From: Clostridia bacterium
GTDB taxonomy: Bacteria; Bacillota; Clostridia; Oscillospirales; CAG-272
Direction: 5' to 3'
Length of the DNA stretch: 64,000 nucleotides
Assembly (NCBI GenBank): GCA_017451545.1
Contig: JAFTOB010000160.1
Coordinates: 3,751 to 67,750 of the forward strand
Shown: positions 3,562-33,647 of the stretch, piece after piece
Numbering within the stretch: position 1 is the stretch's first letter
How the letters are laid out: each line of letters starts with the position of its first letter
Notes under the pieces: model-generated
The model's database searches: none
What the model was told of the DNA's origin: nothing
Seen by the model: the letters and a program-made list of their open reading frames with translations, nothing else
Made by a program: the position numbers and the translations under genes

Positions 3562-4754
3562 TTTTGTATCTCCTTATAAAGCTCTCTGTAATATTCGTTG
3601 AATACCGCGCAGCCCGAGACCCGTCCCGCGCGCATCAGCTCGGTGCACCTGGAGCAGGCGAGACAGCATTTTTTCGGGTCAAACGCGCCGCGCAGGTGAT
3701 CTCTGTAAAACTCGGGATATGCCAGCCACATTCTGCCGTAACCGACCAGATCACATACACCCTCGCAAAGCTGACGCTCCGATTGCTCGATCAGCTCGTC
3801 CCGATAATATGAAAGCCCCGAGCCGACCACCGTGAGCGTCGGGAATTTTTCTTTGATATGCTTTTCTATGTATTCAAAGCGCAGAAGCCCCTCCTCCGCC
3901 GTTTCGGGAGGCAGATAGCCACCCTTTCTGTACGGGCGGTTGACGTGGGGATTGTAATAGGGGTTGCCGACGGTCACGTTCAGCATTTGCAAGCCCGCGG
4001 CTACGAGCTTTTCAATAAGCATATCGGGCTCGGTGAGATCAAGCTCATTCCGTTCGTTCGTTCCGAAGCCGTAGGGCTTTCGGACCATATCCGAAACGCT
4101 GAGGCGGGTTGTCAAAAGAATATTATCGGGAATCGCATTTTTCACCGCGCAAACACAGTCAAGATACAGCCGCGTCCGATTTTCAAAGCTACCGCCGTAC
4201 CTTCCGCCGCGATCAAACGCCGACAAAAGCTCCTGAAAAAGATAGCCGTGGCAGGATTTTACGTCAACTCCGTCAAAGCCCGCCTCCACCGCAAGACGCG
4301 CGGACGACACGTATTTTTTGGGAAGCGTGTCGAGATACTCGTCGCTTACGATATTTTCATCTGTTAAGGGCCGTCTTTCTTCGTACAGGGGATTGCGGTA
4401 GGCGATCATCGGCAGAATGCTCTGCCGCCCCGAATGTGTGAGCTGTAAAATAAAGGTCGGAGATATTCCGCATTCTTCCTTTGCGATCCTTCGCATTTGG
4501 CTCAAAAGCGCCTTGAAATGCGGAAGGTTGTCCGCCGTCAGCATCATGTGCCGAGGATTCGTTCTTCCCTCGGGACAGACCGCGTTGGCCTCAAACCAAA
4601 CCGTTCCCGCGCCGCTTCTTGCCGCCTTTAAGTATTTTTCGACGGTCAACTCGCTCGGGCTGCCGTCCGTATTGCAGTCGCAGCCCTCCATCGGCTGCAG
4701 GACCGCGCGGTTGTCTATCTTCCGTTTTCCTATGTAAATTGAGCTTTCGATCAT
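3558..4754 (-). CDS. Old Yellow Enzyme family NADH:flavin oxidoreductase with a C-terminal Cys cluster
   Basis: Motifs seen: QLTHSGRQ, AGFDGVDVKSCHGYLFQELLS, YGGSFENRTRL, GYGRMWLAYPEF. The C-terminus carries CLACSRC-x11-C, resembling the 4Fe-4S motif of dienoyl-CoA-reductase-type enzymes. Confidence 0.8.
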   Translation of the reverse strand: MIESSIYIGKRKIDNRAVLQPMEGCDCNTDGSPSELTVEKYLKAARSGAGTVWFEANAVCPEGRTNPRHMMLTADNLPHFKALLSQMRRIAKEECGISPTFILQLTHSGRQSILPMIAYRNPLYEERRPLTDENIVSDEYLDTLPKKYVSSARLAVEAGFDGVDVKSCHGYLFQELLSAFDRGGRYGGSFENRTRLYLDCVCAVKNAIPDNILLTTRLSVSDMVRKPYGFGTNERNELDLTEPDMLIEKLVAAGLQMLNVTVGNPYYNPHVNRPYRKGGYLPPETAEEGLLRFEYIEKHIKEKFPTLTVVGSGLSYYRDELIEQSERQLCEGVCDLVGYGRMWLAYPEFYRDHLRGAFDPKKCCLACSRCTELMRAGRVSGCAVFNEYYRELYKEIQK

Positions 4755-5637: not shown

Positions 5638-5698
5638 TACCAAAAATTGTTTATTAAAAGTTTTTGCTTTTCTCTATAGAATTTTTGAGTACTATAAA

Positions 5699-5732
5699 GG
5701 AAACAAGCGCCCCTGCGGGGACGCTTGTTTCC
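5699..5732 (+). terminator. hairpin downstream of the AraC gene
   Basis: ggaaacaagcg-cccctgcgggga-cgcttgtttcc followed by ttatt. Confidence 0.5.
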
Positions 5733-5734
5733 TT

Positions 5735-5882
5735 ATTGCGAAAGCAGATACAGCCTGCGGCTGATAAGATACACGCTTCGCGTGATGATATACGCCTTGC
5801 GGCGATGATATGCCATTGCTTTCGCAATGGATAAAAAATCGACAGGTCGAAACCTGTCGATTTTTGGTGCGGGTAAAAGGAC
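5735..5882. repeat. 148-bp direct repeat, copy 1
   Basis: Matches 6018-6165 with one mismatch that I can see (gataagat versus gatgagat). It contains four mini-hairpins, a terminator-like hairpin at 5838-5861 and 18 nt of tRNA-Leu 3' end at 5865-5882. Confidence 0.9.
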
Positions 5883-5943
5883 ATTTGAACTGCAGCGGCT
5901 CGCGCTGCGGCAAGAATGGTTTGGCTTTGTTTTTTTATTATCA

Positions 5944-6111
5944 ATCACGGCGAAGCCGTGTATATCATCAAGACGGAGTCTTGCATATCATCAATTCCGA
6001 AGGAATTGCATATCATCATTGCGAAAGCAGATACAGCCTGCGGCTGATGAGATACACGCTTCGCGTGATGATATACGCCTTGCGGCGATGATATGCCATT
6101 GCTTTCGCAAT
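5944..6111. repeat. array of 8 mini-hairpins separated by a conserved octamer, in two inverted groups
   Basis: Plus-strand units are cacggcGAAgccgtg, caagacGGAgtcttg, caattccGAAggaattg and cattgcGAAAgcag, each followed by YATATCAT. Next come cagccTGCggctg, cacgcTTCgcgtg, cgccTTGCggcg and ccattgcTTTCgcaatgg, separated by ATGAKATR, which is the reverse complement of that spacer. Confidence 0.75.
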
Positions 6112-6165
6112 GGATAAAAAATCGACAGGTCGAAACCTGTCGATTTTTGGTGCGGGTAAAAGGAC
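6018..6165. repeat. 148-bp direct repeat, copy 2
   Basis: See copy 1. The offset between copies is 283 bp. Confidence 0.9.
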
Positions 6166-6201
6166 TTGAACCTTCACCGAGTTGCCCCGACTAGAACCTG
6201 A
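6148..6201 (-). other. 54-nt 3' fragment of tRNA-Leu(CAG) (att-like duplicate)
   Basis: tggtgcgggtaaaaggacttgaaccttcaccgagttgccccgactagaacctga is identical to 7062-7115 of the intact gene and then diverges. Confidence 0.85.
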
Positions 6202-6226
6202 TGGTAACGTATCCTCGGTGAAAAGT

Positions 6227-6907
6227 TTAACCTTTACCGTACATATAATATGGAGTGACTATTTCTCCTGTATATTTATCTATCCAATATTCCGTGTCAT
6301 AAGCATAATAGTTATCAACAATTTTTTGAATAACTATAACATAAATATGATCGGGAGCAGGCTCACTGACATCGAGTTCACCACGATAGGCATTTTTTCC
6401 ATTATCAAGATCCGCATCTTTGCAATGATTTTCGACAATTTCTATCGCTTCCTCTACTGAAATACATTTATTCCCCGCTTCGCACGCAGGCGTTGTGATC
6501 TCCCCCGTAAAAGCATTGATCAATATCCGATCCATCGTTTGAACGTCGTAAGGCGTCGTGCCATCATCCCCATCTCTACCACCGTTTGATCTCCATTCAA
6601 TCAAAAAATCCGCTGTATAATACTCCACGTCGGAACACGGCATATCGGTCAACACGATCTTTGCGTTCCAGATTGTTCCTGCACCGTAATCTTTGCTACC
6701 ATCCTGACAGTCCCAATATGTGTTTGCCAAACTCCAAGCCTGCTCTTCCGTTACGGGATAGCAATTTGTCGACTTTAAGACATCACTTTCGTTGTTTTCC
6801 GTATCGCTATTCGTATGAGGCAATTCATTACCGTCATTTTGCACGGTGCAGGAGATCAGCGAAAGCATCATAATTAAGCAAAGCAAAATTGCAATATATT
6901 TCTTCAT
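6227..6907 (-). CDS. lipoprotein with PepSY-like C-terminal segment
   Basis: Signal peptide and lipobox: MKKYIAILLCLIMMLSLISC. The C-terminus YWIDKYTGEIVTPYY is PepSY-like. The gene is visibly more AT-rich than its surroundings. Confidence 0.75.
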   Translation of the reverse strand: MKKYIAILLCLIMMLSLISCTVQNDGNELPHTNSDTENNESDVLKSTNCYPVTEEQAWSLANTYWDCQDGSKDYGAGTIWNAKIVLTDMPCSDVEYYTADFLIEWRSNGGRDGDDGTTPYDVQTMDRILINAFTGEITTPACEAGNKCISVEEAIEIVENHCKDADLDNGKNAYRGELDVSEPAPDHIYVIVIQKIVDNYYAYDTEYWIDKYTGEIVTPYYMYGKG

Positions 6908-6938
6908 TTAAACCTCCGAATTTTTAGTCTGTAAGGTC

Positions 6939-6967
6939 AGTATAACATACCGAAAAAGGCGTGTCAA
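6939..6967 (-). promoter_or_regulatory. sigma-A-type promoter of the lipoprotein gene
   Basis: Minus strand reads TTGACA-17 nt-TATACT. Confidence 0.55.
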
Positions 6968-7036
6968 TAAGGTGGGGAAAAGTTTTTTTATTTGGCACTT
7001 TTTGAGTTCAAAGTGGTGGAAAAACCTAAAAAAACA

Positions 7037-7060
7037 AAAAGGAGCAAAAGCTCCTTTTTG
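7037..7060 (-). terminator. terminator after tRNA-Leu(CAG)
   Basis: ggagc-aaaa-gctcc flanked by A and T runs. Confidence 0.6.
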
Positions 7061-7061
7061 T

Positions 7062-7148
7062 TGGTGCGGGTAAAAGGACTTGAACCTTCACCGAGTTGCC
7101 CCGACTAGAACCTGAATCTAGCGCGTCTGCCAATTCCGCCATACCCGC
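7062..7148 (-). tRNA. tRNA-Leu(CAG), 87 nt, type II
   Basis: The reverse complement is GCGGGTATGGCGGAATTGGCAGACGCGCTAGATTCAGGTTCTAGTCGGGGCAACTCGGTGAAGGTTCAAGTCCTTTTACCCGCACCA. It shows an acceptor stem, an anticodon loop TTCAGGT, a variable arm CGGG-GCAA-CTCG, a T loop TTCAAGT and an encoded CCA. Confidence 0.93.
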
Positions 7149-7324: not shown

Positions 7325-7409
7325 TGGTGCGGGAAACGGGACTTGAACCCGTACGGTGAAATCCACACGCCCCTCAAACGTGCGCGTCTGCCAGTTCCGC
7401 CACTCCCGC
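7325..7409 (-). tRNA. tRNA-Leu(GAG), 85 nt
   Basis: The reverse complement is GCGGGAGTGGCGGAACTGGCAGACGCGCACGTTTGAGGGGCGTGTGGATTTCACCGTACGGGTTCAAGTCCCGTTTCCCGCACCA. The anticodon loop is TTGAGGG. Confidence 0.92.
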
Positions 7410-7440
7410 GTGAGCCGCTGCATTTGTTTGCAACGGTGAT

Positions 7441-33338: not shown

Positions 33339-33413
33339 GCCTGCATAGTTAAATGGATATAATAACCCCCTCCTAAGGGGTAGTTATGGGTTCGATTCCC
33401 GTTGCGGGTGCCA
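33339..33413 (+). tRNA. tRNA-Arg(CCT), 75 nt
   Basis: GCCTGCA-TA-GTTA-AATGGATA-TAAT-A-ACCCC-CTCCTAA-GGGGT-AGTT-ATGGG-TTCGATT-CCCGT-TGCGGGT-G-CCA. The acceptor stem has two G.U pairs, including 1:72. An extended -10 TGATATAAT lies at 33318-33326. Confidence 0.75.
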
Positions 33414-33448
33414 AAAAGCCCAAGCACCGAAAGGTGCTTGGGCTTTTT
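33414..33448 (+). terminator. terminator after tRNA-Arg
   Basis: agcccaagcacc-gaaa-ggtgcttgggct followed by ttttt. Confidence 0.85.
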
Positions 33449-33451
33449 GAT

Positions 33452-33497
33452 ACTTGCACGGCAACACATCTTTGCGCGAAGCGCAAAATTGGGTTCG
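33452..33497. repeat. 46-nt direct repeat, copy A
   Basis: acttgcacggcaacacatctttgcgcgaagcgcaaaattgggttcg, repeated at 33591-33636. Confidence 0.9.
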
Positions 33498-33590
33498 CAT
33501 TTTCGACCAAGGACGGCGGTAGCTCGCTGACCGACGGCCGGGCGAAAATATTGGCCGAAGGCCATGCTTCCCGTTGCGGGCTTTTTTGCC

Positions 33591-33636
33591 ACTTGCACGG
33601 CAACACATCTTTGCGCGAAGCGCAAAATTGGGTTCG
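33591..33636. repeat. 46-nt direct repeat, copy B
   Basis: Identical to copy A. It is preceded at 33568-33580 by ttcccgttgcggg, which equals tRNA-Arg positions 33396-33408. Confidence 0.9.
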
Positions 33637-33647
33637 TAATAACAACG

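Follow-up and report, generated by a model that had tools for sequence, protein, structure and literature searches.

The hairpin array analysed here is real, is not a chance pattern, and belongs to a large family of repeats that is related to Gut-1 and lies outside the Gut-1 model. This family is a modular element found at tRNA ends, and both statements are well supported. The array lies in a 64,000-nucleotide stretch of contig JAFTOB010000160.1 from a Clostridia bacterium, here called the window. The window array is a solo copy, with a proximal half-copy beside it, of a mobile and modular element in the intergenic DNA of gut Clostridia. With somewhat less than an even chance in our estimate, the constant spacers are binding sites of a cognate Avd-like protein, with the hairpins serving as fold-out spacers.

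The array at the tRNA-Leu locus

The nucleotides 5946–6113 of the window contain eight mini-hairpins in two inverted groups, with YATATCAT between the units. This is what the first-pass annotation had described, except that it ended the last hairpin at 6111 instead of 6113. Read on its own strand, each group has the same unit plan: a stem starting with CA, a loop of the type C(GNA/GNNA)G, a stem end of TG, and YATATCAT. The plus-strand joiners between the four minus-strand hairpins are atgagata, atgatata, and atgatatg. Features of the locus are listed in Table 1.

Table 1. Features of the array, its half-copy, and the adjoining tRNA-Leu sequences in the window.
Feature	Positions	Strand	Basis
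Half-copy: 19 nt of tRNA-Leu 3' end, terminator, hpA, three proximal hairpins, X'	5730..5882	-	
Distal end motif gtgATTGAT; family consensus TTGATTTAT	5940..5945	-	
Distal half-array: cacggc-gaa-gccgtg TATATCAT, caagac-gga-gtcttg CATATCAT, caattcc-gaa-ggaattg CATATCAT	5946..6016	+	
Distal hairpin cacggc-gaa-gccgtg, then tatatcat	5946-5960	+	sequence
Distal hairpin caagac-gga-gtcttg, then catatcat	5969-5983	+	sequence
Distal hairpin caattcc-gaa-ggaattg, then catatcat	5992-6008	+	sequence
Partial hairpin cattgc-gaaa-gca	6017-6029	+	sequence
Centre X/X' (cattgcgaaagca) + gata, inverted copy of hpA arm and loop	6017..6033	strand-neutral	inverted repeat
Proximal half-array: CATATCAT, cgcc-gcaa-ggcg, TATATCAT, cacgc-gaa-gcgtg, TATCTCAT, cagcc-gca-ggctg	6034..6095	- (tRNA-sense)	
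Proximal hairpin, plus-strand letters cagcc-tgc-ggctg	6034-6046	unit reads on -	sequence
Proximal hairpin, plus-strand letters cacgc-ttc-gcgtg	6055-6067	unit reads on -	sequence
Proximal hairpin, plus-strand letters cgcc-ttgc-ggcg	6076-6087	unit reads on -	sequence
Outermost proximal hairpin, plus-strand letters ccattgc-tttc-gcaatgg	6096-6113	unit reads on -	sequence
hpA, outermost proximal hairpin ccattgc-gaaa-gcaatgg	6096..6113	-	sequence
Module terminator T: aaaaatcgacaggt-ttcg-acctgtcgattttt	6117..6148	-	inverted repeat I16
Displaced 55-nt 3' part of tRNA-Leu(CAG)	6147..6201	-	D3, 58 nt, 98% identity
Intact tRNA-Leu(CAG), 3' end anchors module	7062..7148	-	ARAGORN; Rfam tRNA 54 bits

YATATCAT is seen nine times in the window against 2.8 expected, a number reached in none of 100 shuffles, and seven of the nine matches fall in 5785–6095. 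Folding was compared with shuffled controls, as had been proposed with the annotation. The z-scores of the array are −5.8 (plus strand) and −9.3 (minus strand) with RNA parameters, and −5.9 and −6.7 with DNA parameters. When the 64 kb were scanned generically for mini-hairpins in chains of at least three, this locus alone gave true arrays.

Along the tRNA-sense strand, the tRNA fragment comes first, followed by the terminator (6148–6117), hpA, three hairpins, the centre, and three hairpins of opposite polarity. Beyond these lie about 60 nt, then 19 nt from a tRNA 3' end, and then a second copy of the terminator and of the proximal half (5882–5730). The array lies downstream of a tRNA terminator, as had been noted, and this terminator directly adjoins CCA in the 3' fragment of tRNA-Leu. 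It is flanked by an A-tract and, on its opposite side, by a T-tract, which indicates that it is bidirectional. Such tracts are seen only at the 6117–6148 hairpin and its copy at 5834–5865. The mini-hairpins are followed by YATATCAT and not by T runs, which rules them out as serial intrinsic terminators.

The segment X' at 6017–6029 is complementary to the 5' arm and loop of hpA (inverted repeat I18, 13 nt, 100% complementary). The centre of the array is also the edge of a duplication. The direct repeat D1 (5730–5882 versus 6013–6165) is 153 nt long with 98% identity and has its boundary at 6013; the duplication had been recognised before, with a length of 148 bp. The right-hand group is present twice, as claimed; the half-copy contains hpA and the three proximal hairpins. 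It is without the distal half and is fused directly to the terminator of an AraC-family gene (5697–5734). The array centre matches the recombination breakpoint of half-modules at other loci (L354, L361). Within the distal half, the caattcc hairpin shows the highest conservation of all units in the family. No −10 box follows the distal end motif of the window copy.

The tRNA gene is interrupted by 914 bp (6202–7115) containing its own terminator, one gene with a weak PepSY match, and no array. On the metagenome contig L001, which carries the identical AraC-family neighbour, the array is fused straight to an intact tRNA. This junction indicates that 6202–7115 is a later 914-bp insertion, behind which the 55-nt 3' part of the tRNA gene was stranded. 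Another contig, L002, suggests a single-copy state in some strains. A metagenome search with the exact tRNA-Leu/terminator junction of the window gave 0 matches; thus neither an empty site nor an intact island was found for this locus. A plasmid search matched only the tRNA part, in Monoglobus.

A family of modular elements

The family was searched with a strict pattern of two consecutive units. At least 120 genome stretches match, so the window locus is not unique. Among the matches listed, all are gut or rumen Clostridia MAGs, and the host families are Acutalibacteraceae, Oscillospiraceae, Christensenellaceae, and Ruminococcaceae. The strict pattern also matched eight viral contigs. Three ATATCAT spacers with free gaps gave at least 119 matches in viral contigs, mostly AT-rich repeats of giant viruses, of which only L032 is real. 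L032 has a one-sided array between rusA and terminase genes. Matches in L244 and most of those in L245 are due to chance.

The tRNA-adjacent copies (n = 36) can be aligned into one common plan. The proximal part consists of tRNA-CCA, an A-run, a variable GC hairpin, a T-run, ATCC, hpA, and three hairpins joined by YATATCAT. The distal part consists of the centre X', three or four hairpins joined by ATGATATR, and then TTGATTTAT. hpA has two main variants, CCATTGC-GAAA-GCAATGG and CCAAGCC-GACA-GGCTTGG. In 71 of the 93 canonical copies, hpA covaries with X', the reverse complement of its 5' arm and loop, with at least nine variants. CCA and an A-run stand immediately before the terminator in at least 50 of these 93. 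The left flank of the element is nearly invariant across the aligned copies, and TTTAT is a candidate target-site duplication.

More than 20 tRNA anticodon types, as well as tmRNA, are found next to the arrays. The terminator hairpin of the window copy recurs with identical sequence behind other tRNAs in other species. More generally, the terminator hairpins form families common to different species and different tRNAs, which indicates that the terminator is part of the element. The ATATCAT arrays are always convergent: plus-strand units come first and minus-strand units second. Of 82 copies, 29 use the distal TTGATT as the −35 box of a good outward promoter, versus 2% of shuffles, and in 16 of those 29 a Shine-Dalgarno sequence and a start codon come next.

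As direct counts over units, with variable stem lengths, 227 of 246 distinct inter-spacer segments are hairpin-like, with 120 distinct stems family-wide. The stems therefore vary while pairing is kept, in agreement with the early reading of the window array. The number of units ranges from 2 to 12, and tandem unit duplication is seen in L194 (12 units), L217, and L154. Replication slippage, one of the origins considered at the outset, fits these changes in unit number and not the origin of the element.

Relationship to Gut-1

The first-pass annotation saw no resemblance to REP/BIME, CRISPR, attC, or any Rfam family. This holds for CRISPR and attC, and a relation to one Rfam family does exist. 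The Gut-1 model (RF01706; gathering threshold 50 bits) matches the window with 29.0 bits at 6024–6099 (plus strand) and 26.0 bits at 5741–5816 (plus strand). About 22 copies of the ATATCAT type, from 20 loci, all stay below the threshold; a GTGAAAT-type copy in L248 scores 68 and 51 bits. In the model alignment, the window copy fills the three hairpins and the spacer positions, with AUGAUAU replacing GUGAAAU, and hpA/X' takes the place of the outer pairing.

The Gut-1 consensus is three unrelated hairpins with GUGAAAU between them. Present in the seed alignment are a tRNA, a terminator, an hpA-like hairpin, and three hairpins with GUGAUAU spacers, together with an X'-like segment and a further group with AUAUCAC. 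True Gut-1-type copies (ATGAAAT/ATTTCAT), whose units are divergent, share loci with ATATCAT copies (L248, L151, L152, and L123). Other spacer types are TATGTAAT (L128, L202, and L240) and CATCAT (L214 and L224). The seed content and the coexistence of spacer types indicate that the window array is a new spacer variant in the Gut-1 superfamily.

Both Gut-1 and the window array thus have mini-hairpins of unrelated stems in threes, a constant A/U-rich heptamer (GUGAAAU or GUGAUAU in Gut-1), an outer helix, a position after a tRNA and terminator in human-gut Clostridia, and a second inverted group. They differ in the spacer (AUGAUAU/YAUAUCAU here), in the score (29 versus 50 bits), and in orientation, which is convergent here and divergent in the Gut-1 type. 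The Rfam model covers one half-array only, with no function, tRNA link, or protein partner described. Gut-1 is entered in Rfam as an sRNA and was rated "certainly RNA" by its authors (Weinberg et al. 2010, PMC2864571). Our literature search on Gut-1 found nothing beyond this original listing.

Association with four-helix-bundle protein genes

When the open reading frames within 2.5 kb of the arrays were clustered, the only recurrent family was PF05635, at 14 of 120 loci among the matches listed. This neighbour is a 114-aa protein (E = 1e-18 to PF05635) whose gene starts about 90 nt past the distal end and completes the plan of a full module. PF05635 is annotated as "23S rRNA intervening sequence protein" or four-helix-bundle protein. 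To our knowledge, thousands of these proteins are distributed across bacteria, with a function known only in diversity-generating retroelements (DGRs).

The spacer type follows the clade of the adjoining gene. Clade A is linked to ATATCAT in 8 of 8 genome loci and in 55 of 55 metagenome loci (63 of 63 together), where the 55 are those of 80 metagenome clade-A loci with at least 300 nt of upstream sequence. The ATATCAT array follows a CCA end in 45 of 50 metagenome clade-A loci. Clade B, about 60% identical to clade A, is linked to TATGTAAT in 3 of 3 loci. Clade C is found with CATCAT arrays (L224 and the loci of P0233 and P0187). In the arrays of clade D, five TATTCAT/TATTCAC heptamers stand in tandem, and five more lie inverted on the other side of a centre. 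These clade-D arrays are almost hairpin-free, with one GCGAAGC mini-hairpin sometimes inserted. The apparent exception L210, a clade-B protein behind an ATATCAT array, is a rearranged locus in which a frameshifted clade-A-like gene adjoins the array.

Each element uses one spacer type throughout, several types coexist within a single genome, and proximal and distal spacers do not covary like base pairs. These facts indicate recognition by a family-specific trans factor. Base pairing between proximal and distal spacers, as drawn in the MFE fold, was rejected, as the common variant ATCTCAT lacks the corresponding ATGAGAT at the pairing position. The spacer–clade correlation rests on four clades, and co-inheritance through the physical linkage of gene and array could by itself yield it. 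Five sites per half are clear in clade D only; in the ATATCAT arrays, three sites are perfect and two are degenerate.

About 88% of the genome loci have no adjoining four-helix-bundle gene. No PF05635 open reading frame was detected by hmmsearch in the 64-kb window, so the window array is a solo copy. Its ATATCAT type is the one linked to clade A elsewhere.

PF05635 resembles Avd (PMC10053308), and the nearest solved structure, PDB 2RLD, contains 5 chains. Avd forms a pentameric barrel with positive charge, and its target is a specific segment of single-stranded RNA, about 27 nt long and adjacent to its own gene (PMC6182149). The two systems share the fold family (PF05635/cd16375), and in both a site, here a proposed one, lies beside the gene. 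They differ in that no reverse transcriptase, template repeat, or variable repeat is present near these modules, and the proposed targets here are heptamer arrays on both strands, upstream of the gene.

Strand polarity and the choice between DNA and RNA

Loops and wobbles were counted on the strand reading hairpin and then YATATCAT. Of 334 distinct units, 177 have a G..A loop and 5 a T..C loop, and in 262 the loop is closed by a C-G pair. Stem imperfections are 32 G·T wobbles versus 7 A·C mismatches. This bias is 16 to 3 in the proximal half, on the tRNA-sense strand, and 3 to 0 in the distal half, on the antisense strand. The polarity of loops and wobbles indicates that the hairpins matter as single strands and that the two halves act on opposite strands.

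The majority of the loops are triloops, with 106 of the GNA type. G..A tetraloops are GNYA in 30 cases and GNRA in 37. RNA selects GNRA loops, whereas d(cGNAg) and d(cGNNAg) are reportedly exceptionally stable loops of DNA mini-hairpins. From their sequences, the loop types would suit stable DNA mini-hairpins better than RNA GNRA loops. Perfect stems make up 70%, which fits self-correction of DNA palindromes through template switching. With the terminator cut-off, the downstream promoter, the mirror forms, and unit duplication added to triloops, GNYA loops, and perfect stems, the hairpins would form as DNA rather than RNA. The G·U-type wobbles and the RNA-binding relative Avd would also agree with RNA.

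Alternatively, the array could be REP/BIME-like, non-autonomous selfish DNA that spreads as single-stranded DNA with a transposase encoded elsewhere, as in REPIN/RAYT, and the four-helix-bundle gene would then be cargo of the element's promoter. The likenesses to the REP/BIME and REPIN-RAYT systems of Proteobacteria are several. They include short extragenic palindromes at the 3' ends of transcription units, alternating orientation of groups, conserved linkers, several families per genome, and several copies per locus. A protein gene that is always flanked by repeats, most repeats being far from it, is a further parallel. The number of units varies by tandem duplication, and the loop types and the perfect stems described above would agree with this reading as well. 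However, neither a Y1/RAYT-type nor any other transposase recurs within 2.5 kb at the 120 loci among the matches listed. REP families share one stem and GTAG, whereas here there is no GTAG, the stems are unshared (120 distinct), the hairpins are much smaller (13–17 nt), and the spacer alone is constant. The position is strictly at tRNA or tmRNA CCA ends, and the gene encodes a four-helix-bundle protein instead of an HUH Y1 transposase. The tracking of the adjoining gene's clade by the spacer type, in every clean case, would be left unexplained. A REP-like origin is regarded as unlikely.

Still less probable is a structured non-coding RNA, either a Gut-1-type sRNA or a 3' trailer, with the hairpins and the alternative pairing of hpA and X' acting in the transcript. 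Its basis is the Rfam entry of Gut-1 with the "certainly RNA" rating and the sub-threshold matches in the window, the enrichment of G·U-type wobbles on one strand, the switch-like choice between hpA and X:X', and the RNA binding of Avd-family proteins. The surroundings of the arrays argue against a simple sRNA gene. A strong terminator separates the tRNA from the array, and the element lies upstream of its associated promoter, outside that transcript. The halves have their polarity on opposite strands, and sister families show a mirror arrangement relative to terminator and promoter. No conserved inward promoter was seen in the flanks when these were read by eye. The predominance of triloops, the GNYA loops as frequent as GNRA, and the unstable number of units point in the same direction. 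The intervening terminator, the opposite-strand halves, and the mirror arrangement likewise make unlikely the RNA stabiliser or processing platform that the first-pass annotation had suggested. Of its three suggestions, protein-binding hairpins come closest to the evidence.

Mobility and chaining of modules

An identical clade-D module, with the same protein P0340, is found behind at least four different tRNAs: two distinct tRNA-Leu genes, one tRNA-Gln-like gene, and one tRNA-Pro-like fragment. In the case of L346, the sequence before it is the right end of another module, which terminates in CCA. The identity among clade-D modules ends on the left 3–4 nt before the terminator, that is, at CCA. 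Clade-A modules that are 98.8% identical are also found behind different tRNAs. These near-identical modules after different tRNAs indicate that the module moves. In L352, another terminator with a CATCAT array comes after the right end of a module, "...atttgCCA", which indicates that modules chain in tandem.

Some arrays lie within small islands bounded by direct repeats of tRNA 3' ends: 283 bp in the window, 1088 bp in L147, and 769 bp in L180. The repeats in the window are 19 nt and 55 nt long. The downstream tRNA repeat is absent in 33 of the 36 tRNA-adjacent copies. Single genes with arrays on both sides are seen, and half-modules broken at the centre are found in the window (5730–5882), L354, and L361.

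It might be considered that the array is a recombination site, symmetric like att or attC, around which small cassettes are chained at tRNA 3' ends, with the crossover at the centre or at the CCA/terminator. The tandem chains, the genes between arrays, the centre-broken half-modules, the islands with tRNA repeats, and the association with tRNA and tmRNA genes, typical of integrase targets, would all suit it. On the other hand, neither ORF clustering nor a tyrosine recombinase motif screen, over the loci and the window, found an integrase or transposase recurring near the arrays. The single integrase, in L162, is part of an unrelated island. The 914-bp insertion in the window is without an array, a direct repeat of the tRNA is missing downstream of most copies, and an invertible hpA–X' segment was rejected, as no copy with a flipped proximal group was found. 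There is only a slight chance that a recombination site is the right description. The REP-like, RNA, and recombination readings are not mutually exclusive.

Integron attC sites share with these arrays a conserved structure with variable sequence, folded single-strand sites that are strand-specific, and single-gene cassettes chained at one anchor. Here, in contrast, the R''/L''/L'/R' boxes (GTTRRRY) and IntI are absent, a motif screen of the loci and the window found a single tyrosine recombinase, an unrelated one, the cassettes have their own promoter and terminator, and the anchor is a tRNA 3' end. A CRISPR array is rejected, as the constant part is 8–12 nt, the variable parts are palindromic, and the groups are inverted; the sole CRISPR-related Rfam match has 18.6 bits versus a threshold of 45. 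A phage packaging site, which the array of L032 suggested, is rejected, as chromosomal copies lie outside prophages (L246 and L162) and no phage record matches.

Proposed mechanism and implications

The reading that we prefer, of spacers bound by the cognate protein, draws on two things: the co-variation of spacer and protein in four clades, and the operator-like position of the arrays. In it, the cognate four-helix-bundle protein would recognise the constant heptamer or octamer. The variable mini-hairpins might be fold-out spacers on the strand bearing YATATCAT, most likely as single-stranded DNA. This role is suggested by the clade-D arrays, with their tandem heptamers and almost no hairpins: once folded, the hairpins would bring successive spacers side by side, as in the clade-D arrays. 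Each strand would present one half-array. The nucleoprotein complex would abut the distal promoter, and it probably controls this promoter, takes part in module movement, or both. As for the window copy, it could be a relic, or an orphan site on which a protein encoded elsewhere acts in trans. The model leaves unexplained why some arrays (the Gut-1 type and some CATCAT arrays) are divergent and the ATATCAT arrays always convergent.

Such an arrangement resembles TRAP with its (G/U)AG repeats and the CsrA/CsrB-type RNAs, where an oligomeric protein also binds many short and regular single-stranded motifs whose register is given by hairpins or spacers. The differences are that those targets are RNA and the proteins are unrelated, and that here the target is possibly DNA with two inverted sets of sites.

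It can be speculated further, at a lower level of confidence than the protein-binding reading, that the arrays and the PF05635 genes together constitute an unrecognised mobile module. It would insert exactly at the CCA of any tRNA or tmRNA gene and form tandem chains, and an Avd-like pentamer would read the family-specific heptamers that fold-out DNA mini-hairpins present on single strands. If true, this would be the first function both for "23S rRNA intervening sequence" proteins outside DGRs and for the Gut-1 motif. Gut-1 has been in Rfam since 2010 without a function, a cultured host, or a context, and the present locus ties it to PF05635. A mobile module would also account for common contig breaks and odd intergenic repeats in the genomes of gut Clostridia, and it suggests targeting of tRNA 3' ends independent of tRNA identity.

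Apparent duplications and rearrangements at tRNA ends

The tRNA-Leu(CAG) gene beside the hairpin array is itself inserted by a 914-bp segment (Table). The segment carries a TTGACA promoter and a terminator of its own, and neither an integrase nor a hairpin array is present in it. The metagenome contig L001 does not contain this insertion. On the other side of the array, the 60-nt stretch separating the distal half-array from a 19-nt tRNA fragment includes an 18-nt sequence (window 5888-5905), an inverted copy of which, with 89% identity, is seen at 7408-7425, immediately upstream of tRNA-Leu(GAG). This inverted copy hints that a complex rearrangement took place.

At tRNA-Arg(CCT) (window 33398-33640), the tRNA is followed by a terminator and the array is absent. 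A 45-nt segment is found there in two copies, and just before the second copy 11 nt of the tRNA 3' end (cccgttgcggg) are repeated. The locus looks like a further case in which a short segment was duplicated or inserted at the end of a tRNA.

Table. Features of the inserted and repeated segments at two tRNA genes
Feature	Window position	Strand	Remarks
Insertion into tRNA-Leu(CAG), 914 bp	6202-7115		delimited by a repeat (55-58 nt) derived from the 3' half of the tRNA
ORF, 226 aa	6227-6907	minus	single ORF of the insertion; weak PepSY match
Terminator of the insertion	7033-7062		
45-nt segment, two copies	~33453-33497 and ~33592-36		after tRNA-Arg(CCT); ttgcgc-gaa-gcgcaa hairpin

Sequences and genes associated with the arrays

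In module copies lacking a tRNA (L163, L167, L186, L230, L147, and L152), a conserved stretch, TTGTTGCTATTTTRAGCTGTAAACAC (about 26 nt), lies immediately before the terminator and may represent the right end of a different type of cassette. A second conserved sequence precedes the module terminator in L165 and L233. Another conserved sequence, about 100 nt long and structured in appearance (e.g., ...cagtccggtggactgttttgccgacgcggcaacgagcaaagcgaggcgatag...), is seen in L147, L141, L230, L131, and L180. It lies upstream of the displaced tRNA 3' fragment, a 16-18-nt repeat, with which several small islands end on their far side.

One-sided arrays of ATATCAT units are also present in phage. The array on phage contig L032 (8620-8760) has five or six units, ends with TTGATTT, and is flanked by rusA on one side and by an HTH (small-terminase-like) gene and a large terminase gene on the other. 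L242 and L243 contain similar one-sided arrays. In L188, an ATATCAT array and a DUF3800-XI RNA motif (3870-3917; 54 bits, above the gathering score) are separated by about 180 nt.

In L346-L353, the four-helix-bundle gene of clade D (gene at 1054-1491) shares a 4-nt overlap with a 145-aa gene showing a weak match to WapI. Clade-C four-helix-bundle genes overlap with a 176-aa gene, which has no Pfam matches. The four-helix-bundle protein may work with a partner.

Changes in the number and identity of hairpin units

Expanded arrays of 6-12 units are seen in L194 (1-385), L217 (3014-3259), and L154 (7653-7794). One or two units were duplicated in tandem to give these arrays, and the same hairpin recurs with its loop variants. 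L129 and L216 carry orthologous arrays of related species, both 3' of tRNA-Tyr. Most hairpins are kept between the two, while single hairpins are replaced wholesale. It looks as if the constant spacers are the points at which hairpin units are exchanged.
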